Source: an uncultured bacterium
GTDB taxonomy: Bacteria; Babelota; Babeliae; Babelales; Babelaceae
Length of the DNA: 64,000 nucleotides
Assembly (NCBI GenBank): GCA_963848965.1
Contig: CAWKFG010000005.1
Coordinates: forward strand, 32,001-96,000
Reading direction: 5' to 3'
A program made the translations under genes and the position numbers. The notes beneath the pieces were generated by a model that was not told the DNA's origin, searched no databases, and saw only the letters and a program-made list of their open reading frames with translations. Shown here in pieces: positions 29,551 to 46,247 of the stretch. Position 1 is the first letter of the stretch, and every line of letters starts with the position of its first letter.

Positions 29551-31680
29551 ATGAGCAAGCAGCTACGCTTGTACTATCCTCTTCAAAGGGCTTTACTTTA
29601 TGGAATACTACTCATAGCAGTAGGTGTTGTAGCACAGCCTGCAGCCCAAAGACCTGCAGATACCGTAAAAGAGGCGGTAGCCAAAGAGGAAGTGGCTAAA
29701 AAAGATGTAGGGGAAAAAGTTATTAAAGAAGAGAAGGTTGTTAAAGAAAAGGTTGCTCAAGAAGAGAGTGAAAAAAAGAAAGAAGAAAAAAAAGAGAAAC
29801 CTAAGAAAGCATTATTAACCTATGTAAATGGAGATAGTGAATTTAGGTTTTGGACAAAATTGAAAATGCCTGACTTTACCTATGGTAGAAATCTCCGATT
29901 ACTTAATGATGATAATCCAACAGACCGAGTTATATTTTTTCGTCATACCTTAGACTTTAATTTTGAATATCGCTATGGCAAAGCAAGCCGTGAATATGAC
30001 GTAGTATTTGCTCGTATGGATATACGTAATAAAGGTATCTGGGGAGATCCAGAATCTATTGCATTTACTACCCTTTCTACTATTAAAGAAACAGATGCAG
30101 TCTTTGGTGAACATAAACATGCTATTCCTCGTCATATTTTATGGATTCGTGAATTGTGGATTCAACTTTCTCTTACCGACTTACTTTGTTTACCATTCTG
30201 TAATGCGCATACAATTACGTTCGGTGCATTCCCTTTTGAACTCGGTCGTGGTATTGCCTTGGGATCTGCTTTTGCAACTGATCCAAGCGATTTAGGATTT
30301 ATCTCTGAAAGTGCTATTGACCAATATGCATTTGGTGCTAAGCTTTCAGGCGATGTTATCAAAGATGTGCTTACCTATGATTTGTATGCCTCTATTCTTG
30401 ATAATAAGTCTGATACCTTTGATAACGTGAATCTTAAAATTCGAGGTCAAGAATTTGGACATCGTAATGATCAAGCACGAGGATTTGGTATTATTAACTA
30501 TGTAGTAGCAGGACGTGTCAGGTGGACCCCACAGCTTGATCCATGGGCTAAAGTACGAATAGAGCCATATATTCTTTATAATCATAATCCAGAGCAACGT
30601 ATAGAATTTCTTGCTGATGCTACGAGCGATTTAGGAACTGCAGGTGTTGCTGGAGAATTTGAAGTAGGTAACTTTGAATTTGGGTTTGATACTGCCTTTA
30701 ACTTTGGCCGTCAAAATGTAAAAGGATGGGATAGAAACGTTATTGAGCGACAAAATCGAGATGGTACTGTCGTTATTGTAAACTCTCGAGTAAAACAAGC
30801 CCCTCCTGGACAGAAGCCAACACAAAGTTCTCCTACTGCACTAAAAGTACGTGAAAATCAAACTATAATTGATACTTCAAATCGTTCTGCAAGTGAGAAT
30901 GACAAAGAGATAGGAACAAATAGTCTAGGTACCCTTATTAATGATATTGATCGCTTTACAGATCCTTATTTTAATGAGTATAAAGGATATATGTTTGTCT
31001 ATGATATGAGCTATTATATTTGCAAGCCAGATTTACGAGTAAGTGCAGCGTTTGGCTATGCAAGTGGTGATGCTAATCCTAATCGAGACGAAGAGTTTCG
31101 AGGAGATAGCGAAGTTGATGGCGAATATGAAGGATTTATTAGCTTAGAAGAAGCATATTCAGGAACTCGTGTACGTAGTGCCTTCTTGCTCAGTGGTGCT
31201 GCAAAAATTCCACGACCACTGTCTTTTCCTGACCCAGAAGTATTTGAACCATTTCCAACAAATATCTCGCGTTTTACAAACCTTATTTTTGTAGGAGCAG
31301 GAGTAACATGGCAACCTTCTTGGAGCTGTCGTAAGTGGAGTGTGAACCCTAATATATTAGCATATTGGCAAGATTTTCCACCGCGGTTCTTTAATGCTCG
31401 GCTTGGTGAAAATGGGCTGAGATTTGCTCGGCCATTCTTAGGAACAGAGCTCAACGTTTTTGTCGAAGCTCAATTGCTTGATGACTTAAAGTTCTTCTTA
31501 GTATCGTCTCTGTTCTTTCCTGGTGACTTATACAAAGATATTAAAGGACGTCCTTTAAATAGAGCGCAACAAGCATTTTTAGATAACCAAGATAAAACTG
31601 GTATTATTAACGACCGTGTACCATTTTTGGGTGACGATAAATCATTCTATGTCAATACTGGTTTAGAATATAAATTCTAA
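29551..31680 (+). CDS. Probable outer membrane beta-barrel protein (paralog of 43080-44924)
   Basis: Signal peptide, K/E-rich linker, many amphipathic aromatic strands, C-terminal NTGLEYKF resembling a BamA beta-signal. Confidence 0.65.
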   Translation: MSKQLRLYYPLQRALLYGILLIAVGVVAQPAAQRPADTVKEAVAKEEVAKKDVGEKVIKEEKVVKEKVAQEESEKKKEEKKEKPKKALLTYVNGDSEFRFWTKLKMPDFTYGRNLRLLNDDNPTDRVIFFRHTLDFNFEYRYGKASREYDVVFARMDIRNKGIWGDPESIAFTTLSTIKETDAVFGEHKHAIPRHILWIRELWIQLSLTDLLCLPFCNAHTITFGAFPFELGRGIALGSAFATDPSDLGFISESAIDQYAFGAKLSGDVIKDVLTYDLYASILDNKSDTFDNVNLKIRGQEFGHRNDQARGFGIINYVVAGRVRWTPQLDPWAKVRIEPYILYNHNPEQRIEFLADATSDLGTAGVAGEFEVGNFEFGFDTAFNFGRQNVKGWDRNVIERQNRDGTVVIVNSRVKQAPPGQKPTQSSPTALKVRENQTIIDTSNRSASENDKEIGTNSLGTLINDIDRFTDPYFNEYKGYMFVYDMSYYICKPDLRVSAAFGYASGDANPNRDEEFRGDSEVDGEYEGFISLEEAYSGTRVRSAFLLSGAAKIPRPLSFPDPEVFEPFPTNISRFTNLIFVGAGVTWQPSWSCRKWSVNPNILAYWQDFPPRFFNARLGENGLRFARPFLGTELNVFVEAQLLDDLKFFLVSSLFFPGDLYKDIKGRPLNRAQQAFLDNQDKTGIINDRVPFLGDDKSFYVNTGLEYKF

Positions 31681-31789
31681 GTACTTACAGGCTTGAGAGA
31701 ACATCTCAAGCCTGATTTCTTTATTTACCCCTCCCTTTTGTGATAAAACATATAAAGTACAGCATATACTCATTTTTTTCTAAGCTGTT

Positions 31790-33781
31790 GTGAAAAAAGT
31801 AAAATACCCTATAGTGAGAGGGATTAAGATCTGTACAACAAAAGGATTTTTTATGAAATTCATCACGTATTGCTTGCATATTTTTACACTACTTGGACTC
31901 TCTTTAGTAGCATATGGTATGGAACCAGATCCTCATGCTGCTTTAGGAAGAAATGTGGCTGCAGGGGTTATACGACCTGTGGTTCCCCCTGTTGTAAAAA
32001 TGCAACCCCAAGTACCACCTGCAGTACTTCCCGTTGAGCAACCACCAGTAGCTCCTCGTCAGAATGAAGAAGAGCGGAGGCAAGAAGAAGAAAAAGGCTT
32101 TGAACTGAATGAACTTGTTAAAGATATTGGCCGTGGCCTTTCATGGCTAGCTTCTCGCCCTTTTGTGGGTATTGGTAGTCAAATAGGAGCAGAGTTTTCA
32201 GCAGAAAGATTTCTTGATAATTTAGCGCAACAATTTGACCCTGCAGCCAGAGCAGGCCAAGGCGGCGCAGGAAATAGAGCTGTATCAAATTTTTGGCGTA
32301 CCTTTGCTCAGCAGTTTGGTCCTCGCGGTGCAGGTAGAGAAACACTTGATAATATAACACGTGGAGCAATACAAACATTTTTTGAAACCTTAGCGCAACA
32401 TATGGAAGCACCTTTAGAGGGGGAAAGGGCTGATGGAAATAGAGAGGGCAGAGCAATTAGCCATGCGCTGCAAGCAATGTTGCAAATGCTTGAAAGAGAG
32501 CTTAATAATGGAGGCTTTGAACGGCTATCAGCAAGCTTTTTAGATATGTGGAACCGACATATTAGAGAGGGTGGCCCTATTGCTCGTTTATTACAAACAA
32601 TTGAAGCGCAAATAGAACGATTAAAGAATCAATTAGAAAAGGGAGTAGAAGATATTGGAAAACAAGCTAACGTTCAAGCAGAAAAATTGGGTAAAAAAGT
32701 CGAAAATGTAGTTAAAAATGTAAAAGACAATTATAAGGAAGTTGCAGTAGATGCAGAAGAACGTTACAAACGAATAGAGGCAAGCTTGAAGTGGGCAGCT
32801 CTTATAACTGCTACAGTGACAGCAAGTGCCTGGTTTGGCTCACGCTTTTTCTGGAATAGTGTTGAGCGCTATTTTACACAGCCAGAGTTGGTTACAGAGT
32901 CATCTTATAAAAATGTGTGGGAACAAGTAACAAATTATTTTTGGCCACAACCGTTAGTATTTAGAGAAATGATTTTCTCTAAAGAGGTTAAGCGAGAATT
33001 AGATAATGTTGTTGCAATTACAAAGCATGTTGCACAAGAAAATCAAAAGAACAATCATGCGCAGGTGCGCTATCTTAATGTTCTTTTGTGGGGTCCTCCT
33101 GGAACTGGTAAGACCATGTTTGCAAAAGAACTTGCTAAAAAATCAGGACTTGATTATGCAATTACCAGTGGTGCATCATTTTCAAAATTTGATATTGCAG
33201 GAGGAATTGCTGCTATCGATAGGCTCTTTAATTGGGCAGAAAAAAGTAAGAAAGGGCTTATCATCTTTATTGATGAAGCAGAAGCCTTTTTAGCAGAACG
33301 GGATAGAACGAAGGTTAAAGAAGAAAATCAGCTTGTTACTCATTTTTTAAGCCGTACTGGTGAAGGGAGCAGTAAATTTATGCTTATTTTTGCTACGAAT
33401 AAGCCTGAAGTGCTTGATGAAGCAATACGCCGTCGTACACAACGGTCAATAGAGCTGGGTTTACCTGCAAAACCAGAAGCTGCTAAAATATTGCGTTTGT
33501 ATCGAGATAAAATATTACTTGATAAAGAGCATAATATTCCTGAGCTTATAGACTCAGTAAAAGTAAACTTGAGCGATGAAGCAATTGAACAGTTAGCAGA
33601 AAAACTGAAAGGACTTGCTGCAAGTGAGCTTGAAGATTTTATTAATGACGTAAAAGTTAATGCCGATATCACTGATAATCGCACAGTAACCAAAGATGTT
33701 ATTGATTATGTTATAGACTTATCGCGCAGAAAACATGACGAATTTGTAAGTCATTTCCATCATGCTGCTCCAGCAGCATAA
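31790..33781 (+). CDS. Membrane-anchored AAA+ ATPase, ATAD3-like (likely start at ATG 31853)
   Basis: Signal peptide, coiled coil, TM (WAALITATVTASAWFGSRF), QPELVTESS, NVLLWGPPGTGKT, SGLDYAI, LFNWA, IFIDEAEAFL, FLSRTG, KFMLIFATNKPE. Confidence 0.88.
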   Translation: MKKVKYPIVRGIKICTTKGFFMKFITYCLHIFTLLGLSLVAYGMEPDPHAALGRNVAAGVIRPVVPPVVKMQPQVPPAVLPVEQPPVAPRQNEEERRQEEEKGFELNELVKDIGRGLSWLASRPFVGIGSQIGAEFSAERFLDNLAQQFDPAARAGQGGAGNRAVSNFWRTFAQQFGPRGAGRETLDNITRGAIQTFFETLAQHMEAPLEGERADGNREGRAISHALQAMLQMLERELNNGGFERLSASFLDMWNRHIREGGPIARLLQTIEAQIERLKNQLEKGVEDIGKQANVQAEKLGKKVENVVKNVKDNYKEVAVDAEERYKRIEASLKWAALITATVTASAWFGSRFFWNSVERYFTQPELVTESSYKNVWEQVTNYFWPQPLVFREMIFSKEVKRELDNVVAITKHVAQENQKNNHAQVRYLNVLLWGPPGTGKTMFAKELAKKSGLDYAITSGASFSKFDIAGGIAAIDRLFNWAEKSKKGLIIFIDEAEAFLAERDRTKVKEENQLVTHFLSRTGEGSSKFMLIFATNKPEVLDEAIRRRTQRSIELGLPAKPEAAKILRLYRDKILLDKEHNIPELIDSVKVNLSDEAIEQLAEKLKGLAASELEDFINDVKVNADITDNRTVTKDVIDYVIDLSRRKHDEFVSHFHHAAPAA

Positions 33782-33788
33782 AGAATTG

Positions 33789-33815
33789 GGCCCTGGAAAT
33801 ACCAGGGCCTTTTTT
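33789..33815 (+). terminator. Intrinsic terminator
   Basis: GGCCCTGG/CCAGGGCC stem plus T6. Confidence 0.8.
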
Positions 33816-33881
33816 AATGCTTGTCTAAACTATTGATTCTCTTTCATTATCCTTACTATATTTTTCATATAAGGGGGCTTT

Positions 33882-34487
33882 ATGAAAAGAATACGGATAC
33901 ACAGTTTTATGTGTATATTTTTGGTACATACATTGAGAGCTGAAATAGTTGTACGACCTGCTGCAATGGCAGATGTTCCAGAAGTATTAGAACTTGATAG
34001 GCACGTTACCTATGAGTATTTTAAGCCTTTATATGTAAAAGCATATCCACATTTACCATTAGGACAAGATCCAGACCGCTTTCTTGAACCCGAGTTACAG
34101 CAAGATGAGAAAACGTTCTATGACTGTGTAAAAAATCCTGGTAATACACGCTTACATATAGCGTATGATAGTAACAGTAAACGTATAGGAGGATTGATTG
34201 TTTTTCATAAAGAACATGAAGATACAATAGAATTGGATCTTTTGCTTGTTGACAAAGACTATCGTAAAATGGGAATAGGCAGAAAGCTTGTATATAATGC
34301 TGTTGCTACGTTTAAATACATAAAAACATGTATTGTATATCCTGTACGACATAAAAATGATGCTACACTCAAATTTTACCAGTCACTTGGATTTAAGAAT
34401 CTCGGTGTATGTCCTTTAGATAAAATGAATCCCTATGGTATAAAGTACTCTGATATGTATTTTTATTTTAGGCTTGACGTTATATAG
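33882..34487 (+). CDS. GNAT family acetyltransferase with signal-like N-terminus
   Basis: LLVDKDYRKMGIGRKL (motif A), KFYQSLGF. Confidence 0.85.
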   Translation: MKRIRIHSFMCIFLVHTLRAEIVVRPAAMADVPEVLELDRHVTYEYFKPLYVKAYPHLPLGQDPDRFLEPELQQDEKTFYDCVKNPGNTRLHIAYDSNSKRIGGLIVFHKEHEDTIELDLLLVDKDYRKMGIGRKLVYNAVATFKYIKTCIVYPVRHKNDATLKFYQSLGFKNLGVCPLDKMNPYGIKYSDMYFYFRLDVI

Positions 34488-34719
34488 GAAAATGAAGCAG
34501 AAGGCATTGCTACCGCTCTCTATTTGTAGCCAGTTAGCTCTTAAAGTATGTACAGGCATATCTTTTATTGATTGCTTTTCTTTAGTTACTTGTCATAATA
34601 GTAAAGATACTTTCAACAAAAATTTACATATTGACACAAATACAAAAGCTGCTATCTTGAATTAGAATATATTGTAAAATAATCTTTAGTGCTATTTCAC
34701 TTAAGTAAGCAGGAAGTCT

Positions 34720-37128
34720 ATGCATACAATCTTCACTATTCTTTTAAAAAGCTTAACTTTCTCTCTACTCGGTATTTCATGTGCTCTTAGTATGGAGAAA
34801 GAAGGCTCCATTCATCAAAAATTACTTACTGCTTGTGAAAACGGTAAGCAAGAAGAAGTCCTTGGGTTATTAGAACAAGGAGCTGATATTAATACTCTTG
34901 ATAGCGATGCCCCCTTAACATTCGCCCTATACCATAAACATTCTTCACTTGCTCACATGCTTATTGAAAAAGGAGCAGACATCAACCTTCCAACTTCCGG
35001 GCATGCTTTTAGCCCTCTTATGGTAGCAGCAATAGCAGGCATGCAAGATATAGTACGTTTACTTATTGAGTTACGAGCACAAATAAATGTACAAAGCTCA
35101 GAAGGTACAACTGCATTAATGTATGCCCTGATGTATGGCAATCTAGAAATAGCTCAAATGTTGTTAGACGCGGGCGCAGACATACATCTTAAAAATAAGA
35201 AAGGGAATAATGCCCTTACTCATGCAGTTGATTACGCATTTATGTTACTTAATCAATTAACTCTTAAAGAACGTAACGCATTAGTAGAAAAGCACAATTC
35301 ACTCAAACAACGGCTTTATATTCTCAAAGCTCAAGATGCTTCGCCCGAACTCTATAAAGCCTACATCTCCTTTATAGATACTTTACTTTCTTTGAAGATA
35401 GAAATGCAATCTCGAGAGGTACAAAAGCTCTTTTGCATAGCGCTAGCAGGAAACAATCTTCCTATTATTAAAACAATAATTGAAACTCCAAAGCTTTTTT
35501 CCCAACTAGGAGATCTGTCTTATCTTTACTTCATTCCGGTAATAAAAAATCGATATACAGATATAGTAGACTATCTTATTGGATACAAAGCATGTATGCC
35601 AACTTTACTGTTCGCAGCTGTCCATGAAAGAGATGAAAACCTAGTAATAAGGCTCTTACAAGCAAAAGTAGACATTAATGATACTTTATTACTAGCTATA
35701 GATCGAAATGACAAGAAACTTGTAACGTTACTTCTTGAAAACAATGCTAACTTGAGTGCATCAAATAATCCAGATGAGCCCCCACCCCTTATACATGCTA
35801 CATTTAAAGGTTATAAAGAAATTACAGAAATTCTCTTAGCACATAGAGCATCTTTAGAAACACAGTGGACGAAATCAGGTCGTACCGCTCTTATTTATGC
35901 TGTTAGAGAAGGACATGTCGCTCTTGTGCAACTGCTTTTAGATGCGGGTGCTAATCCTAATGTTCAAGATAACTCTGGATTTTGGCCTCTTACATATGCA
36001 GCAAAGCATGGAAATGATAGTATTGTACAAGCTCTGCTTAACGCCGGAGCATCCGTTGACGCACAATCTGGTAATGATAAAAGAACTCCTTTATTGTGGT
36101 GTAATCATCATACAACGGCTCGATTACTTCTTAAAGCCGGAGCCAATGTTAATGCTCTAAATGCATATAAAGAATCACCACTAATAGAAGCCATACGTTA
36201 TGTAAATCCTTCATTAGAGCTCATAAATCTTTTAATCGAATATGGCGTAGATATACATCATGGAGGAGAAGCACCCTTACGGTGGGCCCTTATGCTGGAT
36301 GAGATCGAAATAGCTAAGTTGCTTCTGGAAAAAAAGGCCAATCTTGACAGCGCATTTTTTTATGCCGCTAAGCTTCAAGGCCTTATTCTTATGGCAAAAT
36401 TAGTAAGTCTTGGAGCAGATATATCTACCTATGGTGAGCAAATATTTGAATCAGCACAAGAGAATAATCAGTTTGAAGCTTTGCGCTTTCTTGAAATTCT
36501 TGAGCAACCAGAGTTGTATACGTACCTTAAAGATACCTCTAGGGGTATACCCTATTTAAGAACTTGTAATGGACATGCAGAAGGCTGGCTCAAGTCAGTA
36601 ACTTCTATGTTCACACCTTCAAGCACTGCAGCAAGCACATGCTTTCATCAAACAAAACTGATGTGGGCTGTTATGTTTGGCCATACTGAAGTTGTTAAAT
36701 CTATACTTAAACGGCAGCAATCTTACCAAAACAAAGAAGATCAGCATAAATTCCGTTGTTATTTAAATGCTCAAGATAAATACGGTCGCACTGCGCTTAT
36801 GTACGCTATCATATTTGATGAATCAAAAATATATCCTTTACCATATCAAGCAGAAATACTATCTTTGCTTCTAGAAGCTTATAAAAACCTTCCAAACTCA
36901 GAGCGTAATGCTATTAATATATCTGATATGCAAGGCAACTCTGCTCTTGCATATGCAGTTAAGCAAAAAAATCTCCCTCTTATTACGCACTTGTTAGAAA
37001 TAGGAGCACGACCTACTATAAAATTACTCAAAGATGCAGCAAAGCAAGGACAACATACTATTCTTGCAAAACTACTTTTCTTTGTACTTAGGGATTCTCA
37101 AGGGTTAAGATATCCTGCTATTTTGTAA
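34720..37128 (+). CDS. Large secreted ankyrin-repeat protein
   Basis: Signal peptide and more than ten ankyrin repeats (GTTALMYA, GRTALIYA, GNSALAYA). Confidence 0.9.
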   Translation: MHTIFTILLKSLTFSLLGISCALSMEKEGSIHQKLLTACENGKQEEVLGLLEQGADINTLDSDAPLTFALYHKHSSLAHMLIEKGADINLPTSGHAFSPLMVAAIAGMQDIVRLLIELRAQINVQSSEGTTALMYALMYGNLEIAQMLLDAGADIHLKNKKGNNALTHAVDYAFMLLNQLTLKERNALVEKHNSLKQRLYILKAQDASPELYKAYISFIDTLLSLKIEMQSREVQKLFCIALAGNNLPIIKTIIETPKLFSQLGDLSYLYFIPVIKNRYTDIVDYLIGYKACMPTLLFAAVHERDENLVIRLLQAKVDINDTLLLAIDRNDKKLVTLLLENNANLSASNNPDEPPPLIHATFKGYKEITEILLAHRASLETQWTKSGRTALIYAVREGHVALVQLLLDAGANPNVQDNSGFWPLTYAAKHGNDSIVQALLNAGASVDAQSGNDKRTPLLWCNHHTTARLLLKAGANVNALNAYKESPLIEAIRYVNPSLELINLLIEYGVDIHHGGEAPLRWALMLDEIEIAKLLLEKKANLDSAFFYAAKLQGLILMAKLVSLGADISTYGEQIFESAQENNQFEALRFLEILEQPELYTYLKDTSRGIPYLRTCNGHAEGWLKSVTSMFTPSSTAASTCFHQTKLMWAVMFGHTEVVKSILKRQQSYQNKEDQHKFRCYLNAQDKYGRTALMYAIIFDESKIYPLPYQAEILSLLLEAYKNLPNSERNAINISDMQGNSALAYAVKQKNLPLITHLLEIGARPTIKLLKDAAKQGQHTILAKLLFFVLRDSQGLRYPAIL

Positions 37129-37142
37129 TACGATAAGCAGTA

Positions 37143-38828
37143 TTACTCTTTTATATTAGATAACATCTTAAGGTATATTCTTTTGCCCTCAACAGCAATA
37201 CCATAAGCAAAGATTTGATTAAGACCTCGAGCATGAAGTTCTTGCATATACTGTTTCTCAAGAATTTGATCAATGGCTTTTTGCGCAGCAATTTCAAGAG
37301 TTTCACTAGCAAGAGTCTTCTTAAACTCAATAACTATAGCTGGTTTATTATGCTGCTTTGGTATAAGCATTATATCATAACGACCAAATCCGCTTTTTTT
37401 ATTTGATTTAACTTCATACTGATCATGAAGCATAACAAGAAGTCCCAAAACAAAAAGATGATAGCTTTTCTCAGGCTCATTGCTCGATACATCAAAGAAA
37501 CTCATACTGTTTAGTATAAAACCTTGCAATAATTCAGCAAAGGATTCAGCCTCCCCTTGGGTAAGAGTTTCAAGCAGATCTTTTACCTGACCACCAACAA
37601 CCGATTCTTGGAAAATATTTCTAATAAGCTCTGAGTAAAGATGCTTTATTTCTTGATTTGGGATCGTAAGAGAGCATATTTTTGTTCCCTCTTTAAGTTC
37701 CCAGTGAGTATATGTCAAATAACCGGTAAATAATAAAAGACTCCACAAAAGCTCGGTGCGGTGATCTAAATCTGGAAATATAATCGATTCTTGAATTGCT
37801 TGATCTACAGATTTATCTTCAAGCAAAAGTTCAAGATCTGATTTCACAGACTTAGGTGCTCGGGCTATAAGCTTTTTTACAAGCGCGTTATCGCTAGTGT
37901 TTGCCCAATACTTTTCCAATAAACCTCTATTTTGAACACATTTTAGCACCGACCAAGGGTTAAAAATACCTTTAACTTCACCAAAGGTATACCCATCATA
38001 CCACTCTTGAATTTTTTTAGCATCATCTTGAATACCATAATACTGTAACAGCGTATGAACCTCTTCATACGTAAAACCAAATTTATCTGCCATAACAAAA
38101 CGCGTAAGACTAAATACATCAAGGTTATTAAGCCCTGTAAATATCCCCGCTTTTGCAAGAGTTAAAATACCAGTAATAACCCCTTTTTCAAGAATATCAC
38201 TATCTTTAAACACCGCAGTCAAGAGTCCTCTTGCAAACTCAATAGCTTGATCATAAAATCCATTAATATAAGCCGATTGTATAGGGGTATCATATTCATC
38301 AATAAGGATAATAACCTTCTTATTGTATCTTCTATAAAGAAGCTGTGCTAAAAAATGAAGACTATCTTCAAGCTCTGCTTTGGAAGCAGTTCCTTCAAGA
38401 ATTCGTTTATACCTATCTTTTTCGTGGTTTTTTAAAGAATCGTGAAAAAGTATTTCCTGATGTCGTGCATATTCTTCATAAATAACCAAAGCAAATTTAT
38501 CATATGTTACATCCCAGGTTGCTTCTTTAATATTCTTAAATGTAACAAATATGACAGGAAATTGTCCTTGAAGAACACGTTGTTCAGGATAGCTCCAAAT
38601 AGCTTTATCTTGAAAAAGATGAGCATTGCTTTCTTCGCTTGCTTCAAAAAAGTATTTAAGCATAGATAAGTTGAGCGTTTTACCAAAGCGTCGAGGACGA
38701 GGAGCAAGTATAATCTGACCATGTTCTAAGATATCTTTTATTAAAAGAGTCTTATCAACATAGTAATAGTTATTCTCAATAAGAGTTTTAAAGTTACTGA
38801 TACCGATAGGTAATAATTTCTGTGTCAT
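37143..38828 (-). CDS. AAA-ATPase-like plus PD-(D/E)XK nuclease protein (PF09820/PF08011 type); likely start MTQKLLPIG at 38828
   Basis: LPIGIS, YYVDKT, RPRRFGKTLNLSML, LIDEYDTP, GLNNL, YWANTS, EKSYH, GRYD, IEFK. Confidence 0.9.
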   Translation of the reverse strand: MTQKLLPIGISNFKTLIENNYYYVDKTLLIKDILEHGQIILAPRPRRFGKTLNLSMLKYFFEASEESNAHLFQDKAIWSYPEQRVLQGQFPVIFVTFKNIKEATWDVTYDKFALVIYEEYARHQEILFHDSLKNHEKDRYKRILEGTASKAELEDSLHFLAQLLYRRYNKKVIILIDEYDTPIQSAYINGFYDQAIEFARGLLTAVFKDSDILEKGVITGILTLAKAGIFTGLNNLDVFSLTRFVMADKFGFTYEEVHTLLQYYGIQDDAKKIQEWYDGYTFGEVKGIFNPWSVLKCVQNRGLLEKYWANTSDNALVKKLIARAPKSVKSDLELLLEDKSVDQAIQESIIFPDLDHRTELLWSLLLFTGYLTYTHWELKEGTKICSLTIPNQEIKHLYSELIRNIFQESVVGGQVKDLLETLTQGEAESFAELLQGFILNSMSFFDVSSNEPEKSYHLFVLGLLVMLHDQYEVKSNKKSGFGRYDIMLIPKQHNKPAIVIEFKKTLASETLEIAAQKAIDQILEKQYMQELHARGLNQIFAYGIAVEGKRIYLKMLSNIKE

Positions 38829-39056
38829 CAATTGCCTCAAAGCATGAGGGAAAGCGTTAATCACAGTATAGTACCCCTTATGCAAAATTGCAATGCCCCT
38901 TGCTTTTACCAAAATAAGCTTACACATGAAAGTTAGCTGGAATATAGTATCAATATTTGATGCCAATGTTAGGAAGAAGAGACTTTTGTGTTATTGAAAC
39001 TCTTTGCATTTTCTTTAAACATTTGAAATTTAGCTTTTCTTAGATTCTGCTCTTAC

Positions 39057-40610
39057 ATGAGCATTTTATGCCGAACACTTAGGCATTTTTCATATAAAAG
39101 TTTACCAGGTATACTAGGTAAGAATAGCAGAATGCTATTGTTATTGAGGAGAATTTTTATGAGTTTAAGAATATTATTTTTGTGCGCACTAACCCTTTCT
39201 GTAGGTTCGTATACCTACAGTATGCAATGGGCTAAAGACAAGCTTGGCAAAGCGATAGGTGAGGTAGGTGCAGGAGCAACGAAAGCATATCTTGAGGATA
39301 ACAAAACTCATGAGGCTTTTCATACGCATATTGTACAACCTGCTGTTGATAAGATGAATGAAGTGAAAGACCATGCAAAAAAAGCTGCAGAAGAGATGGT
39401 AGAAAATGCCAAGAAGGCAAGCGAAAAAATGAAACAAGAGCTTGAAGAACAAGCAAAAAAAGCAAATGAGGAATTTAAGAAAAATACACACGAAGCTACA
39501 GATAAGTTTAAAGAGAGCATATTAAAACCAACAGTTGATGAAGCTCATAAGTTTAAAGATGCAACTGTTAAAGAGGCTGATAGACTCTTTGATAGGCTTT
39601 CTGAAACTATAAAGACAGGAGCATTATGGACAGTTGGCGGTGCTGCTGCTATATTTTCGATATGGTATGCTTATAAATTTTTATGGAACCATGTTGAAAA
39701 AGCATTGCACAAACCAGCCATTCCTTTACGCTCGGCACATCCGGGTTTTTTTGGTCGTATTAAGAACTTCTTTAGCAGTTCAGAAAGCTTTACACCTCGT
39801 CCACTATTTTTTGCTCCTGAGCTTAAAGACAGGTTACAAGGTATTTTAGATATAGCACTTGATACTGCACGTCGAATTCAAGCAGGAGATAAAACTGCAA
39901 CTTATAGTAATCTTTTACTATGGGGCCCTTCAGGTACTGGAAAGCGATCATACGCACAGCAGCTTACTCGTGAGTTAGCACAAGCTGCAAATATGGACTA
40001 TGTTTTCCTTGATGGTGCTTTCTTTGCTCCTGTAAAGAATGGTACACCGCTTGAAAGAATAGATACGCTTTTTGAGAAAGTACAAAATAACTCGCGAAAT
40101 ACTATCATATTTATTGATCAGGCGAAGTTCTTGCTTTCAAAACATCATACTACTGATGTTATTATGGAACGATTCTTAAAATATGCAAAAGAACATAGTA
40201 ATAAGTATATGATCATCTTCACGACAGCTCCTATACACATTGCAGAAGAAGTAAAAGGAATAATAGGAGATTCAGTAGAAATTGGATTACCTGAATTACC
40301 TCAAATAATTGATATACTCAAACATTATCGAGATACATTATTAATTAATAATACAGCTAATCCAAGCTCTTTAGTAGAGTCTGCACAAAAAACGCTTGTC
40401 GATGAATCAATAGAGAGTTTAGCACAAGAGCTCAAAGGATTCTCTTGTAGAGACCTTGAAAATATTATTAAGGCAATTCAAGATAAAGCTCGTCGCCAAG
40501 ATTGTATAATATCTACTGCTGTTGTTAAAGCTGCAGTTGCAGAAGCTACTAAGAAATATCAAGACTTTAAGACGAATCTTCCCCATCAGTATGCAGCACA
40601 AACTGCATAA
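39057..40610 (+). CDS. ATAD3-like AAA protein with degenerate Walker motifs (likely start at ATG 39159)
   Basis: Signal peptide, coiled coil, TM, NLLLWGPSGTGKR, IFIDQA; paralogous to 31790-33781. Confidence 0.8.
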   Translation: MSILCRTLRHFSYKSLPGILGKNSRMLLLLRRIFMSLRILFLCALTLSVGSYTYSMQWAKDKLGKAIGEVGAGATKAYLEDNKTHEAFHTHIVQPAVDKMNEVKDHAKKAAEEMVENAKKASEKMKQELEEQAKKANEEFKKNTHEATDKFKESILKPTVDEAHKFKDATVKEADRLFDRLSETIKTGALWTVGGAAAIFSIWYAYKFLWNHVEKALHKPAIPLRSAHPGFFGRIKNFFSSSESFTPRPLFFAPELKDRLQGILDIALDTARRIQAGDKTATYSNLLLWGPSGTGKRSYAQQLTRELAQAANMDYVFLDGAFFAPVKNGTPLERIDTLFEKVQNNSRNTIIFIDQAKFLLSKHHTTDVIMERFLKYAKEHSNKYMIIFTTAPIHIAEEVKGIIGDSVEIGLPELPQIIDILKHYRDTLLINNTANPSSLVESAQKTLVDESIESLAQELKGFSCRDLENIIKAIQDKARRQDCIISTAVVKAAVAEATKKYQDFKTNLPHQYAAQTA

Positions 40611-40619
40611 AGAACTCAT

Positions 40620-40647
40620 AAGCCTCCGGTAAAATGGAGGCTTTTTT
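40620..40647 (+). terminator. Intrinsic terminator
   Basis: AAGCCTCC/GGAGGCTT stem plus T run. Confidence 0.75.
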
Positions 40648-40710
40648 CATACAGAGCTTTTACTTTTGCTCTCTTATTACGGTATGCTATAAAAAAGGGG
40701 GGGAGAGAGC

Positions 40711-41427
40711 ATGCTTGTCGTATTACTAAGCTTTTTTTATGAGTTTGTGCGCTTGTGTTTAACTAGTAAAGTGTTTGCTCTTATAGTTCTAGGAGCAGTA
40801 TGTCTACAGTTTTTTACTAATACTTTTGAAAAAGTATATAATAAGCCAGTTCCTCCTGCAGCAATGCTATTACACGCTCCAGCTGTTTCTCACTCTATAG
40901 CTCCTTTGGCATCTCCTGTTTTACAATCGCAGTCTATTCCATTTATAGGTGCTCTCTATGCTTTTGTAAGACAAGGAATGAATTTTCATGCGCCTGCTTC
41001 ATCTACAGATGGTGTTCCGCCTTCAGGAGCTATCCCAACTTCTTCTGATAGCGATAAAAAAGATCCTCGTTGGATTTTAGAGAGTAAAAATACTGTTTTT
41101 TTGGGAACAAGCATTACAGCAGGACTTATTGCTTTGTGGGCTGCAGGTAACTACTTACTTCCTGAGTCTCAACACGAAAAGCAACCAGTAAGAACACAAG
41201 ATATGAAGCAAGCTATGCTAGAAAAGCTCCAACATACTGTTACTGTTTTTAACCCAGAAGTAAAGATTTCTGACAGAGAGCTTGAGCAGCTTTCTACGTT
41301 CCTTTTGCATATGCAGCAACAGACCAAGAAACAAAGTATCTCTATCCGTTGTAAAAATTTTATTCAAGCATGGACTAAATACTTTATTGCTCGCTATACC
41401 CAACACAAAACTTTGCTTTCTTTATAG
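40711..41427 (+). CDS. Hypothetical membrane protein, possibly an AAA-less relative of the ATAD3-like family
   Basis: AAGGGGGGG RBS; TM VFLGTSITAGLIALWAAGNYLL resembles IFWGTTLLVGAMGAWFLLKHLL of the next gene. Confidence 0.6.
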   Translation: MLVVLLSFFYEFVRLCLTSKVFALIVLGAVCLQFFTNTFEKVYNKPVPPAAMLLHAPAVSHSIAPLASPVLQSQSIPFIGALYAFVRQGMNFHAPASSTDGVPPSGAIPTSSDSDKKDPRWILESKNTVFLGTSITAGLIALWAAGNYLLPESQHEKQPVRTQDMKQAMLEKLQHTVTVFNPEVKISDRELEQLSTFLLHMQQQTKKQSISIRCKNFIQAWTKYFIARYTQHKTLLSL

Positions 41428-41504
41428 ATATTTTCTATCCTCTGTGGTAAAGAAGAATATATACTTTAAAAAACGTATATCATCTATAGAGAAGAGAGAA
41501 AACT

Positions 41505-43016
41505 ATGCAGGTTGAGATGTTAATGTTAGCAGGGTCTATAACCTTTATAGCGTGGGCTTTACTGTATCATTTTAATGAGATACTATTCTGGAGTGCGCTT
41601 GGTCTTTTTGGTGCTGCAGGAACAGTCAGGGTTCATAATTACTTGAATCAGACTGTAAAAGTAGAACAAGGTGCTGCTCCTACCTCTAGACAGCGTGTTG
41701 CTTTACTTGTTAAACATTATGTAAATTCTGTTGTAACTGTTGTAGGTCCTCCTGTAGAGCGTGTTGCTAATTCTGTAGTGGCTACTCAAACAGGGCAAGT
41801 GTGCTTGCGTATGTGGCAACGTATAAAAAGTTATATACCCTTAAGATTTCTAGCAGCATCAGTATTAGGCGCAGCTCCGAGAGTCAATGCTGCAGTACCC
41901 GGTAATAGAGAGGGAGTGGCAGTTAACATAGCAGAAGAAAGTGGTAGATTTGGTGCCCAAGCTGCTGATAGCTTTATACATAATGTTATGCAAGCACCAC
42001 ATGTACGTGAAGTTATAGATAGCTTACGACAAGCTGTTGGTGATGGCAGACCACTTGGAGAAGCTGTAAAGAAAATGGCAGAGCCTATTGCTGAAGAGAT
42101 AGGCAAAGGTCTGGAAGAAGCTGAAACAAAGATGGAACAAAAGGCTGCAGCTGTAAAAGGAGAATTTAAAGGTGCAATTTTTTGGGGCACTACTCTTTTA
42201 GTAGGGGCAATGGGTGCCTGGTTTTTATTAAAACATCTTCTTGCAAAGCCAAATCAGGATCAAAACAAATCACGCATCCGAGTTCCAGAATTTGAAAAAA
42301 GGCCTATAGAACGACTACGTTCATTATATACAAGAAGCTCTCATACTTCACCAGAATTGTTCTTTGAGTCTTCATTACAAGAACATCTAAATGCTGTTAA
42401 AGAACTTATTATTTCGGTAAGGAAGAAAAAATACGAAGAAACTGTAGACTGTTCTTATCCTCGAGTGCTGTTGTATGGGCCGCAAGGAACTGGTAAGCGG
42501 TCATTTGCTCAAAGTGTTGCACAAGCTGCTGGTATGAGCTTTATACCTGTTACAGGATCAGCATTCTTTGCTTTTAAAGGAACAGATGCATTTAAAGCTG
42601 TAGATACCTTATTTGATGAAATTAAACAAAATACAAAGGGTGCAGTACTGTTTATAGAACAAGCAGAACTGTTGCTATCTCAACCTAAGGATGAGCAACC
42701 TACTGATGATCGTGCAGTTTTTATAGCATATTTTGCAGAGCAGATAAAAGATATAAGTAAACTATGCCCTATAGTGTTTGCTCTAGAGGAGCTTCCTCAT
42801 CCTTTGCATAAAATATCTAAGGGCTGCATTACTCATCAAATATCATTTACTTTACCAACTGTTAAAGAGCGACTGAGAGTACTTAAACTTTTTAACACTA
42901 GGCTGCAAGAATCACAAAAGAATGTGCTGAATGATCAAGAGATTGAAGCTCTTGCTCATGATCTTGAAGGAGCTACGTATGTAGATCTTCAAAAAGCACT
43001 TGTAGGCGTTTACTAG
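41505..43016 (+). CDS. ATAD3-like AAA protein with degenerate Walker motifs
   Basis: N-terminal TMs, central TM, VLLYGPQGTGKR, LFIEQAE, FTLPTVKER; paralogous to 31790 and 39057. Confidence 0.8.
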   Translation: MQVEMLMLAGSITFIAWALLYHFNEILFWSALGLFGAAGTVRVHNYLNQTVKVEQGAAPTSRQRVALLVKHYVNSVVTVVGPPVERVANSVVATQTGQVCLRMWQRIKSYIPLRFLAASVLGAAPRVNAAVPGNREGVAVNIAEESGRFGAQAADSFIHNVMQAPHVREVIDSLRQAVGDGRPLGEAVKKMAEPIAEEIGKGLEEAETKMEQKAAAVKGEFKGAIFWGTTLLVGAMGAWFLLKHLLAKPNQDQNKSRIRVPEFEKRPIERLRSLYTRSSHTSPELFFESSLQEHLNAVKELIISVRKKKYEETVDCSYPRVLLYGPQGTGKRSFAQSVAQAAGMSFIPVTGSAFFAFKGTDAFKAVDTLFDEIKQNTKGAVLFIEQAELLLSQPKDEQPTDDRAVFIAYFAEQIKDISKLCPIVFALEELPHPLHKISKGCITHQISFTLPTVKERLRVLKLFNTRLQESQKNVLNDQEIEALAHDLEGATYVDLQKALVGVY

Positions 43017-43079
43017 ATTAACTGTCTTAAAAAAATGTAGTAAACTCTGCACTATACGATTATTCAAAGAGGTGCAGAG

Positions 43080-44924
43080 TTGTGGATCATAGTTCTTTTT
43101 TTTACCATTACTTTCTTTGCTGAATCTGCTGTACAGTGGACTCAGGATGCGAGTACTTATGAGTTTTCTGTCTATTTTCAACCAGAAGCAGTGTATGCAA
43201 AGAATATCTATTGGTTGAATAATGAAGCATGTGACGAAGTATTATATGCACGCCATTACCTTGACCTTCAATCACTATATACGTATCGCGAAGATGTAAT
43301 GAAAGCTAAGGCTGTCGTACGTTCTCGCACGATCTGGGGTCATACACCAGAAGCACTATGCACAAGTAGGGTCCCTGTTAAAGAGTTTGGCATAACTTTT
43401 GGAGGACATAAGCATGGGCTCTGGTTGAGTGAAGTATGGATACGCGAGCTATGGCTTGAAGGTAGTCTAAACGATTTTTTAGGATTGCCTTTTTGCAATC
43501 GACATATACTTACTATTGGTGCTTTTTCTTTTGAATTAGGCAGAGGTATCTCATTAGGCTCTGCATATCCGAATTTCCCTCTTTTAGTAGGTGTGGATAT
43601 TGATAGTGCAATTGATCAATATGCATTTGGAGCAAAACTGTCAGGAGAACTCTCTAAAAATCATCTTTGGTATGATATTTATGGAGCTATTTTTAGAGAA
43701 CGAGCACTTGATATAACTGATGATGATCTTTTTGAGCGAGCTTGTGATCGCGGTACCTATGGTTATAAAGCCCATCCGTTTGAAAGAACTTTGCACTGTG
43801 GACTTCGTGATTTTGCTGTTGCAGCACGACTGAGGTGGGAACCGCTTGATAAAGATGAGAAAAAAAAGGTATATTTTGAACCTTATGTGCTCGCGTATCA
43901 TGCTCCTGACCTAAAAATAGAATTTTCTCATGAAGGGAAAAGTACTTTAGTAACACTGGGGCTTGCTGGAGAGTATACGTTTAAAAATGTTGAATGTGGT
44001 TTTGAGTGGGCTTTTAATAGAGGAGGTCAAGAGGTATTTGGTCTTGATAGAAATAAGCTTATTATGCATGACGATAACGGCGTTCTTCAAGTAGTTAATG
44101 ACCAAGTAGTTGTCAGCAGTATAGATCATGATGCTTTAGCGACTCCAAAAAATGAGAAACTTATTCGTTTGTCACCTGCTTGTCAAAGTAAGAACGGGAA
44201 ACCACTTTCATCTACTTTAAAGAATAAGCCTTTTAGATTCCAAGATCCTTATTGTGTTCAGTATAGAGGCTTTTTTTTCGTTGCAGATCTGAGTTTTATT
44301 CTTTTAAAAGATACGTGTAAAGTGAGTTGTACCTGGGGCTATGCATCTGGTGATAATGATGTGCATAAAAGGATACTAAAGGAACATATATTAGAAGACT
44401 GTAAAAAAGTTGTAGATTTTACAGGGTTTGTAAGCGTTAACGAAACCTATGTTGGCAAGCGGGTGCTGAGTGCACTTTTTCTTAATGGTGTTGGTGTTTT
44501 TCCTCGTCCTATCACCTTTGGCTCTGTTATAGATTCTTCTGCTTCTTTAGTAGGAGGTTTTACCAACTTAGTGCTTGCCGGTTTTTCTACCGATTTATGG
44601 TATAAATTAGAGCCACATCGATGGCATATTAACCCTAATGTACTCTTTTTTTGGCAAGACCATTCTCCTTGCTGGAAAGACAAAAAAGTTCCTTCTTACT
44701 TAGGAGTGGAGCTCAATTGTATAACTGAGATGCAGCTTTTTAAGGATTTTTCTTTCTATGCTATAGGGTCTGTATTTGTGCCAGGCTCTTGTTATAAGTT
44801 TCTTACAGGAGTGCCTCTTAGCAGTGAACAGGTAGAGAGTTTTGAAGAGCATAAGGTATCTCATGGCTTTCTTGGGCATGATCCTGCATACCTTATTAAC
44901 TTTGGATTGAAATATACGTTTTAA
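43080..44924 (+). CDS. Probable outer membrane beta-barrel protein (paralog of 29551-31680)
   Basis: Shares WIRELW, LPFCN, FELGRGI, SAIDQYAFGAKLSG, GYASGD, FTNL and WQD with 29551; ends NFGLKYTF. Confidence 0.65.
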   Translation: MWIIVLFFTITFFAESAVQWTQDASTYEFSVYFQPEAVYAKNIYWLNNEACDEVLYARHYLDLQSLYTYREDVMKAKAVVRSRTIWGHTPEALCTSRVPVKEFGITFGGHKHGLWLSEVWIRELWLEGSLNDFLGLPFCNRHILTIGAFSFELGRGISLGSAYPNFPLLVGVDIDSAIDQYAFGAKLSGELSKNHLWYDIYGAIFRERALDITDDDLFERACDRGTYGYKAHPFERTLHCGLRDFAVAARLRWEPLDKDEKKKVYFEPYVLAYHAPDLKIEFSHEGKSTLVTLGLAGEYTFKNVECGFEWAFNRGGQEVFGLDRNKLIMHDDNGVLQVVNDQVVVSSIDHDALATPKNEKLIRLSPACQSKNGKPLSSTLKNKPFRFQDPYCVQYRGFFFVADLSFILLKDTCKVSCTWGYASGDNDVHKRILKEHILEDCKKVVDFTGFVSVNETYVGKRVLSALFLNGVGVFPRPITFGSVIDSSASLVGGFTNLVLAGFSTDLWYKLEPHRWHINPNVLFFWQDHSPCWKDKKVPSYLGVELNCITEMQLFKDFSFYAIGSVFVPGSCYKFLTGVPLSSEQVESFEEHKVSHGFLGHDPAYLINFGLKYTF

Positions 44925-45560: not shown

Positions 45561-46247
45561 ATGATTGTATTTTTTTGTTTAATGATAGTTATAGAACTGG
45601 GTCTTGCTAGTAATGTAGTTGCAATGGAACAAGATGTGCAAAACGTTGATACACAACCTTTTCAAACAGCCTTGGCTCAAAAAGATTTTACTAGACTGTA
45701 TGCTACTCTTGACGCATATCCTCAACTACGGCAAGAATATTGGAGAAATTTAATGCAGAGACAAGTTGACACCCCTGTTAACAAAGAGGATGTAGATGCT
45801 CTAAACGTAGAACAGCTTGAAAGATTAGATCGTGAATTGAAGCCGCTGTTAAATCTTATAGCAAGACTCTATGCTTTTGTTGATGAAGACCAAAAAAGAA
45901 TTGAGGCAGCAACTTGGACCGGCAAGGATAAGATCTTACTACAAGGAGGTTCAAAAATTGTACCTCTTATTGTAATGTACTCTGCTTATGTAGCTTATAA
46001 TTATAGTAATATGAATATAGTATTTTTAGGGTGCATGTTAAGTGTAGAAGCTCTTCTTTTATGTGTTCTTTATGGTGTTATATGTGACACGTATGTCCCT
46101 CGATTACCGCACGATTTTGAATATTCTAAATTGAAAGATATGCTTAAGAGTGCGCAAACTAAAGTAGGGACATTAAATGGATGGGTTAGCACTGCGCTTG
46201 TACAAAAAAAATATGTTAATGGATTCATAAATTTACCAACTGCCTGA
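45561..46247 (+). CDS. Hypothetical exported protein with two TM segments
   Basis: AGGAG RBS, signal peptide ending VVA-MEQ, hydrophobic hairpin flanked by helical regions. Confidence 0.7.
   Translation: MIVFFCLMIVIELGLASNVVAMEQDVQNVDTQPFQTALAQKDFTRLYATLDAYPQLRQEYWRNLMQRQVDTPVNKEDVDALNVEQLERLDRELKPLLNLIARLYAFVDEDQKRIEAATWTGKDKILLQGGSKIVPLIVMYSAYVAYNYSNMNIVFLGCMLSVEALLLCVLYGVICDTYVPRLPHDFEYSKLKDMLKSAQTKVGTLNGWVSTALVQKKYVNGFINLPTA

Follow-up and report, generated by a model that had tools for sequence, protein, structure and literature searches.

The window analysed here, i.e. the whole 64,000-nucleotide stretch C5:32001-96000 of a 1.73-Mb, five-contig genome from the bacterial phylum Dependentiae, carries a gene cluster between nusA-infB-nfo(-) and aspS, in which three paralogous AAA+ ATPases (AAA-1, AAA-2 and AAA-3) are bracketed by two paralogous proteins with an outer-membrane β-barrel type of sequence (barrel A and barrel B). 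ATAD3 (ATAD3A/B/C), to which these ATPases are homologous, is a mitochondrial inner-membrane AAA+ protein that is essential in animals, plants and Plasmodium and whose mutations in humans lead to neurological disease. We consider it likely that the locus as a whole is to be understood as a set of bacterial membrane ATPases of the ATAD3 branch that lie beside a barrel found throughout the phylum.

AAA-1 (31790..33781, plus strand) is open from a GTG codon for 663 amino acids and matches the Pfam family AAA (PF00004) with E 4.8e-25; its likely start is ATG 31853 (642 amino acids), 21 codons downstream, where the database form P0001 also starts. AAA-2 (39057..40610, plus strand; 517 amino acids; PF00004 E 7.8e-9) and AAA-3 (41505..43016, plus strand; 503 amino acids; PF00004 E 1.6e-11) are 28% and 25% identical to AAA-1, respectively. 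All three have a common layout, seen in their sequences and, for AAA-1, also in the AlphaFold2 model, in which a signal-like hydrophobic N-terminus is followed by a helical region, a hydrophobic helix and the AAA+ module. A preliminary description of this DNA, made from the sequence, had placed the open reading frames at these positions and had recognized the three ATPases as paralogues of one layout, both of which our analysis confirms. In AAA-1 the order is a signal-like segment (residues 22-43), a proline-rich stretch, the helical region, a transmembrane helix at about residues 336-357, the linker QPELVTESS (residues 364-372) and an AAA+ module with lid and C-terminal helices (residues 395-655). 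The AlphaFold2 model is confident from about residue 380 to 655 (predicted local distance difference test, pLDDT, above 90), is preceded by low-confidence helices with pLDDT mostly below 50 and contains a single long helix (263-362) that runs through the transmembrane segment. A conserved [11 protein letters not shown]-type linker directly follows the transmembrane helix of AAA-1, with P365 being invariant in the family; this ATAD3-type linker is weaker in AAA-2 (KPAIPLRSA) and barely recognizable in AAA-3.

The three paralogues clearly differ in the state of their catalytic motifs. AAA-1 has intact Walker A and Walker B (DEAE) motifs, together with the Asn of sensor-1 and an Arg in the finger region, and its orthologues likewise retain [8 protein letters not shown] and DEAE as well as both the sensor-1 Asn and the finger-region Arg. 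AAA-2 is degenerate, with GPSGTGKR as Walker A, IDQA as Walker B (i.e. Glu replaced by Gln) and neither sensor-1 Asn nor Arg finger, and so is AAA-3 (Walker A GPQGTGKR, Walker B IEQA, sensor-1 and Arg finger lost), which in addition is without about 45 C-terminal residues found in AAA-1 and AAA-2. The same degenerate state recurs in the second ATPase of five related cassettes (L116, L118, L120, L121 and L123) and in the sole ATPase of three others (L001, L003 and L006), with the entire set sharing GK followed by R or Q, a Walker B of the type D-N/Q-A or E-Q-A, and the lack of sensor-1 Asn and Arg finger. Since these degenerate motifs are kept across orthologues, they represent a conserved state rather than decay, and the pattern of substitutions suggests that AAA-2 and AAA-3 are partner subunits that would bind ATP without hydrolysing it.

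Kinship of the ATPases with ATAD3

With residues 340-663 of AAA-1 as a phmmer query, i.e. the part from the transmembrane helix to the C-terminus, the 120 matches listed are headed by about 35 unnamed or Dependentiae proteins (E 1e-182 to 1e-42), followed by eukaryotic ATAD3 proteins (PF12037 plus PF00004) with up to 157 bits, 30-39% identity and mostly 90-94% coverage of the query, and then by CDC48- and FtsH-type proteins, which cover 48-68% of it. When the same query was compared with all PDB chains, the best score (117.7 bits, summed over two modules) belonged to Rix7, and in all but 2 of the 60 chains listed the best-matching segment has its start at query residue 91, i.e. almost no solved family covers the transmembrane–linker part; Msp1, Bcs1 and full-length FtsH do not appear among these 60 chains, the lowest being the isolated ATPase domain of an i-AAA protease (74 bits). 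BLASTP aligns AAA-1 with ATAD3 of Bos mutus at 31% identity over 300 residues (E 1e-43), and this alignment opens at QPELVTESS/KPSLVRETS right after the transmembrane helix, so that the likeness to ATAD3 motifs which the preliminary description had pointed out for this protein is borne out by alignment. At the level of profiles, hhalign matches 36 family members to 23 eukaryotic ATAD3 sequences with a probability of 100 and E 6.5e-81 over 306 columns, which run from inside the transmembrane helix to the C-terminal helices and leave the N-terminal parts unaligned. Finally, a hidden Markov model (HMM) of the Dependentiae core domain gives 188-378 bits with the family and 204-234 bits with eukaryotic ATAD3, as against at most 120 bits with FtsH, CDC48 and multi-module AAA proteins.

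Two phylogenetic trees were calculated, with 11-16 outgroup modules, classified as CDC48-like or FtsH-like by their precomputed Pfam lists and including two AAA proteins of the window genome typed by PF00004 alone. A quick tree of 102 sequences comprised 35 of the 103 clade-A-like representatives (every third by score), 26 proteins with a high ATAD3-profile score, three intermediates, 18 ATAD3 proteins, the three window proteins, a fourth copy from the same genome and 16 outgroup modules. In this tree, the family plus ATAD3 is split from the outgroups with a support of 100, and the window proteins are placed in a clade A (96), with AAA-2 as the sister of AAA-3 (99). A more careful tree had 78 sequences, 20 of them eukaryotic (those with a named source coming from a stramenopile, a green alga, land plants and animals), with AAA-3 being left out for its end branch of 2.6. 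Here, support is 100/99 for the family plus ATAD3 and 100/100 for the clade A that holds the window proteins, and the 20 eukaryotic ATAD3 sequences are monophyletic (100/99) with the window proteins outside. In line with the motif likeness noted in the preliminary description, these AAA modules thus group with ATAD3 rather than with FtsH- and CDC48-type modules in database ranking, domain scores and both trees. It is very probable that the three window ATPases belong to the ATAD3 branch.

As in eukaryotic ATAD3, a transmembrane helix is followed by a (G)KP-x-L-V-x-E-[ST]-S linker, an AAA+ module and C-terminal helices, and it is for this transmembrane–linker–motor core that the likeness is supported; it does not hold for the N-terminal ATAD3_N domain. 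In contrast to ATAD3, the window proteins are encoded by bacterial genes, begin with a signal-like segment of the Sec type and have an N-terminal region that cannot be aligned; they fall into clade A, the family is multi-copy (four copies in the window genome), and two of the three copies in the window are degenerate. With FtsH, CDC48/p97, Rix7/Afg2 and NSF, which include the best solved-structure matches by sequence, the window family shares the classical-clade AAA fold and motifs, but it has no protease or N-domain, and these proteins score lower and are placed outside its clade.

The family is truly bacterial. At E<=1e-45, members are present in 116 of the 261 Dependentiae genomes (84 of the 189 high-quality ones) and in 65 of 145 genera, the family being found also on complete chromosomes, being near-universal in the families f17 (34/35) and f18 (11/12) and present in 15 of the 40 genomes of the window's own family, f1. 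An exhaustive phmmer search of 1.84 billion representatives gave 396 proteins at E<=1e-30, and about 110 of the best 150 of these are single-module family members. Five proteins from the same search (P0226, P0233, P0240, P0275 and P0278) have 1800-2100 amino acids with five or six classical AAA modules in tandem and rank high by summed score. In the window genome, three of the four copies lie in the window and the fourth on contig C4 (258254-259684, minus strand; locus L082), with a frame of 522 amino acids, an intact DEAE motif and a long branch in clade B; the next-best AAA protein of this genome is 50 orders of magnitude weaker than these four. Two near-identical AAA proteins of the same genome, at C4:141306-141875 (L093) and just upstream of the window at C5:27334-27909 (L094), belong to open frames of more than 1000 amino acids with a single AAA module in mid-protein, and in the quick tree they group with the 756-residue L091 (95) among the outgroups.

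Clade B includes the C4 copy and the f17 and f18 genes and is closer to ATAD3 than the window proteins are. Its proteins (e.g. the C4 copy, P0034, P0037 and P0051) share phylum, layout and family with the window ATPases and differ from them by GKPTLVRETSR linkers and by ATAD3-profile scores of about 250-320, as against 79-218 for the window proteins. Named members come from Candidatus Dependentiae/Babeliales or are entered as 'bacterium', with one protein from an 'Epsilonproteobacteria' metagenome-assembled genome that apparently lies on a contig of the phylum Dependentiae. A scan of viral contigs with a clade-B profile revealed no ATAD3-like gene in giant-virus or phage contigs, only generic AAA cores; the best match among the best 80 of 151 relatives had E 6e-15 and was confined to query residues 295-438.

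The deep branching order differs between the two trees, with the backbone being (A,(B+ATAD3)) at a support of 81 in the quick tree and ((own C4 copy, P0324),(ATAD3,(clade B, clade A))) at 91/85 and 92/87 in the careful one. In an approximately unbiased test a single Dependentiae clade was not rejected (p 0.54), the constrained tree being better by 1.18 log-likelihood units. With discordant backbones and this test result, these trees are compatible with either direction of an ancient transfer. What they do exclude is a recent capture from a sampled host lineage, since eukaryotic ATAD3 is monophyletic with no bacterial sequence nested inside. A more far-reaching scenario, which is possible though rather unlikely, would be that ATAD3 has a deep bacterial sister family confined to Dependentiae, with the gene having passed between an ancestor of these parasites and stem eukaryotes, possibly from the bacterium to the eukaryote; ATAD3 would then have begun as a bacterial envelope protein, and the window lineage would perhaps have wired it to a duplicated barrel.

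The barrel proteins and their position next to ATPase genes

Barrel A (29551..31680, plus strand; 709 amino acids) and barrel B (43080..44924, plus strand; 614 amino acids from a TTG start) both have a signal-like N-terminus and an AlgE-like β-barrel. They are 37% identical over 614 aligned columns (E 2e-124) and end in GLEYKF and GLKYTF, respectively, with the terminal F being at least 90% conserved in 55 homologues; that they are paralogues with β-signal-like C-termini had already been noticed. Neither matches any Pfam or NCBIfam family, PF13372 included, and only one of 102 barrel homologues has a precomputed match to PF13372. AlphaFold2, supplied with the 55 homologues, modelled barrel B as almost entirely β (pLDDT 81.4; predicted TM-score 0.82), and Foldseek placed AlgE first (E 1.1e-16, TM-score 0.67 on AlgE), followed by MOMP of C. 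jejuni, OprP and OprD/Occ, with AlgE entries overall at E 1e-16 to 1e-13 and TM-scores of 0.62-0.70 on AlgE. The barrel fold suspected in the preliminary description is thus predicted for barrel B with good confidence as AlgE-like, of the 18-strand type as judged by the Foldseek match. With AlgE (PF13372) and 18-strand porins barrel B shares this predicted fold and the C-terminal aromatic β-signal. Unlike AlgE, to which they are about 10% identical, the window barrels are some 150-250 residues longer, with large loops, and have no alginate genes nearby, their neighbours being nusA, infB, nfo and aspS.

The barrel family, with 102 clusters and 124 relatives in species genomes, does not extend beyond Dependentiae. 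Within this phylum, 255 of 261 genomes carry it (188 of 189 among those of high quality), usually as one or two copies. The window genome has three; the third (C1:340305-342173) was matched in two pieces inside one open frame of 645 amino acids. Barrel A is the conserved orthologue, being 56-64% identical to many Dependentiae homologues. Its Lys/Glu-rich low-complexity N-terminal extension (residues ~35-90, window positions 29650-29820), which barrel B does not have, could be a periplasmic tether; many barrel A orthologues also have 700-790 amino acids. Barrel B is a divergent extra copy found in only some genomes of f1. The public call for it has 403 amino acids (P0122) and is probably truncated relative to the 614-residue frame with its TTG start, because P0121 is 79% identical over 100% of the length and because the frame aligns to barrel A.

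Are barrels and ATPases linked beyond this locus? Counting a family ATPase of more than 130 bits within 7 kb as a neighbour, we found one at 10 of 78 barrel loci, nine of them adjacent and one 5 kb away on the other strand. Seen from the other side, 40 ATPase loci gave nine with an adjacent barrel and one with a barrel 5 kb away, all ten in f1; several of these ten are in the same genomes as the barrel-side loci. By contrast, no barrel lies within 7 kb at any of the 26 ATPase loci from f2, f4, f11, f17, f18 and f21 or at the four other paralogue loci of f1, and none of the clade-B loci examined adjoins a barrel. Within f1, the same-strand order barrel–ATPase–(ATPase)–(barrel) occurs in five genus-level groups, i.e. 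g1 (the window's), g3, g12, g15 and g19. The site of the barrel, nfo–barrel–aspS, is fixed with or without ATPases, and the arrangement nfo(-)–barrel–x–aspS is found without the ATPase insert at L041, L043 and L074. The preliminary description had made conservation of the adjacency in relatives a test of its reading, and such conservation is seen only inside f1 and not in the six other families.

In the window, terminator-like hairpins lie between several of these genes. One with an 11-bp stem, detected by consensus scan only, occupies 31688..31714 (plus strand), 8 nucleotides past the stop codon of barrel A; another (33788..33810, plus strand; 9 bp, 7 of them GC, with a T-run) follows AAA-1, and a third (40620..40643, plus strand; consensus scan) follows AAA-2. 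In the 64 nucleotides that separate AAA-3 from barrel B downstream no hairpin was found. The consensus scan gave 20 terminator-like sites in the region as against 11.6 expected, and 54 promoter-like sites as against 57.4 expected in shuffled sequence, i.e. no enrichment, so that it is the hairpins from which operon structure has to be read. With adjacency limited to f1, a phylum-wide barrel at a fixed site and these hairpins, we read the neighbourhood as a lineage-specific insertion of ATPase genes next to a housekeeping gene for an outer-membrane protein, together with a local duplication of the barrel.

The alternative put forward in the preliminary description is a trans-envelope machine, in which an ATAD3-like ring touches the AlgE-like barrel via periplasmic helices and thus forms a device for secretion or membrane contact that is driven from the cytoplasm. 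It draws on the same-strand gene order kept in the five f1 groups, on the presence of a second barrel copy only where ATPases are present (the window, L001, L002, L004, L005 and L006), on AlgE-type barrels being known as exporters and on those parts of the literature that portray ATAD3 as a trans-envelope coupler. Yet nearly all Dependentiae genomes have the barrel while fewer than half have the ATPase family, 68 of the 78 barrel loci have no family ATPase nearby, the barrel keeps its nfo/aspS site with or without ATPases, the loci of six other families and the further f1 paralogues are without a nearby barrel, and hairpins part barrel A, AAA-1 and AAA-2. A complex prediction for barrel A (residues 96-709) with AAA-1 (residues 44-336) scored 0.00 with an uncertain fold of the partner and carries no weight either way. 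The comparative evidence thus does not support the proposed coupling, and we regard such a machine as unlikely.

Other genes interrupt the cluster. The segment 33882-38966, which parts AAA-1 from AAA-2, encodes a GNAT acetyltransferase with a signal-like N-terminus (33882..34487, plus strand; PF00583 E 9e-12), an ankyrin-repeat protein of 802 amino acids with a hydrophobic N-terminus (34720..37128, plus strand; Ank_2 E 6.3e-72) and, on the minus strand at 37143..38966, a protein with AAA-ATPase_like and PD-(D/E)XK (PDDEXK_9) domains (PF09820 E 2.1e-44; PF08011 E 4.9e-18), which is unrelated to the ATAD3-like family. In related cassettes the ATPase genes are adjacent, and the PDDEXK_9 type of gene may be a marker of a mobile insertion. 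Between AAA-2 and AAA-3, an open reading frame of 238 amino acids with hydrophobic segments (40711..41427, plus strand) matches no Pfam or NCBIfam family, and a second orphan frame with hydrophobic segments (228 amino acids), likewise without a family, is located at 45561-46247; in BLAST searches against all fetched loci both matched only themselves. In L007/L121 an open reading frame of 227 amino acids occupies the equivalent place between the two ATPases, with no BLAST similarity to that of the window.

Proposed topology and competing explanations

In the explanation that we favour, the ATPases would be bitopic inner-membrane proteins, in which an N-terminal signal or anchor places the fast-evolving helical region in the periplasm, and a single transmembrane helix is followed by the ATAD3-type linker and the AAA+ module in the cytoplasm. 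This 'N-out, motor-in' topology would be equivalent to that of ATAD3 across the mitochondrial inner membrane, with the helical N-terminal part in the intermembrane space or periplasm, respectively, and the motor inside. The signal-like N-terminus, the single transmembrane helix and the need of the motor for ATP make it fairly likely that the proteins reside in the inner membrane, with the motor on the cytoplasmic side and the helical part in the periplasm. AAA-1 would be the working motor, and AAA-2 and AAA-3, binding ATP without hydrolysing it, may co-assemble with or regulate the active subunit; that AAA-1 is the sole hydrolysing subunit, with the degenerate copies acting together with it, is a proposition for which we see even chances. 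By analogy with ATAD3, such a ring might spend ATP on organizing or reshaping components of the membrane or envelope from the cytoplasmic side, and its periplasmic helices would extend in the direction of the outer membrane; that it actually contacts the outer membrane or the barrel seems improbable. The two flanking genes are copies of the near-universal barrel, beside which, in this explanation, ATPase genes were inserted only in f1, where the barrel was also duplicated.

Several observations weigh against this explanation. PF12037 (ATAD3_N) was not detected in the three window ATPases in a Pfam scan at E<=0.01 and is not among the 25 most-matched Pfam families of 36 family members, with a few clade-B relatives (three among the members listed) being those that do match it. 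The N-terminal regions of the window paralogues show no mutual similarity by BLAST, and against all fetched loci only a weak match emerged, i.e. between the N-terminal part of AAA-2 and its orthologue in L117 (E 6.5e-6); with regions that cannot be aligned and are modelled at low confidence, the picture of a periplasmic coiled coil is one that we infer. Setting the family apart from Msp1/ATAD1 and Bcs1 relies on their absence from the 120 phmmer and 60 PDB matches listed, with the trees having been calculated without them. Moreover, the repeated barrel–ATPase order in five genus-level groups could reflect a functional link.

A second alternative, also raised in the preliminary description, holds that the ATPases are exported effectors which mimic host ATAD3 and insert into host mitochondrial membranes in order to remodel the organelle. 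Dependentiae live as parasites inside protist cells, the ATPase family has multiple copies whose N-terminal regions evolve very fast, and the cluster includes an ankyrin-repeat protein. As context rather than evidence, a published account (PMC6561590) describes Chromulinavorax destructans as being wrapped by an expanded host mitochondrion and as having signal peptides in 44% of its coding sequences. Against mimicry stand the monophyly of eukaryotic ATAD3 with no bacterial sequence inside, i.e. no recent host capture, and the depth and wide distribution of the ATPase family in the phylum; furthermore, conserved catalytically dead paralogues and the signal-plus-transmembrane layout suit an inner-membrane resident, and no export route for a transmembrane protein was identified. 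Effectors of this kind therefore appear very unlikely. Finally, that these are generic membrane AAA+ proteins, e.g. FtsH derivatives minus the protease, with a convergent or compositional likeness to ATAD3, would fit the NCBIfam matches, which are only sub-threshold and generic (CDC48, PAN and FtsH) and the absence of PF12037 from the window proteins, but is extremely improbable in view of the ATAD3-specific ranking, the hhalign match through transmembrane helix and linker, the domain-score gap (at least 188 versus at most 120 bits) and the 100/99 clade.

Implications for ATAD3 and for Dependentiae

A Plasmodium paper from 2026 (PMC13249166) treats ATAD3 as eukaryotic and as absent from fungi. 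The proteins described here are a bacterial, Dependentiae-wide branch of this family regarded as eukaryotic. Automatic annotation at JGI already labels some clade-B members 'ATAD3A/B', and full-text literature searches combining ATAD3 with Dependentiae, TM6, eukaryotic lineages and horizontal gene transfer, which did not cover the main review on ATAD3 distribution, found no description of bacterial relatives.

For studies of ATAD3, this bacterial sister family provides an outgroup for dating and rooting as well as simpler proteins for the structure and biochemistry of the ATAD3-specific linker and motor. It also raises the concrete question whether early eukaryotes and Dependentiae-like parasites exchanged genes. 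For the biology of Dependentiae, our analysis identifies the universal AlgE-like outer-membrane protein of the phylum and draws attention to an envelope ATPase that is widespread, occurs in multiple copies and has conserved dead paralogues.

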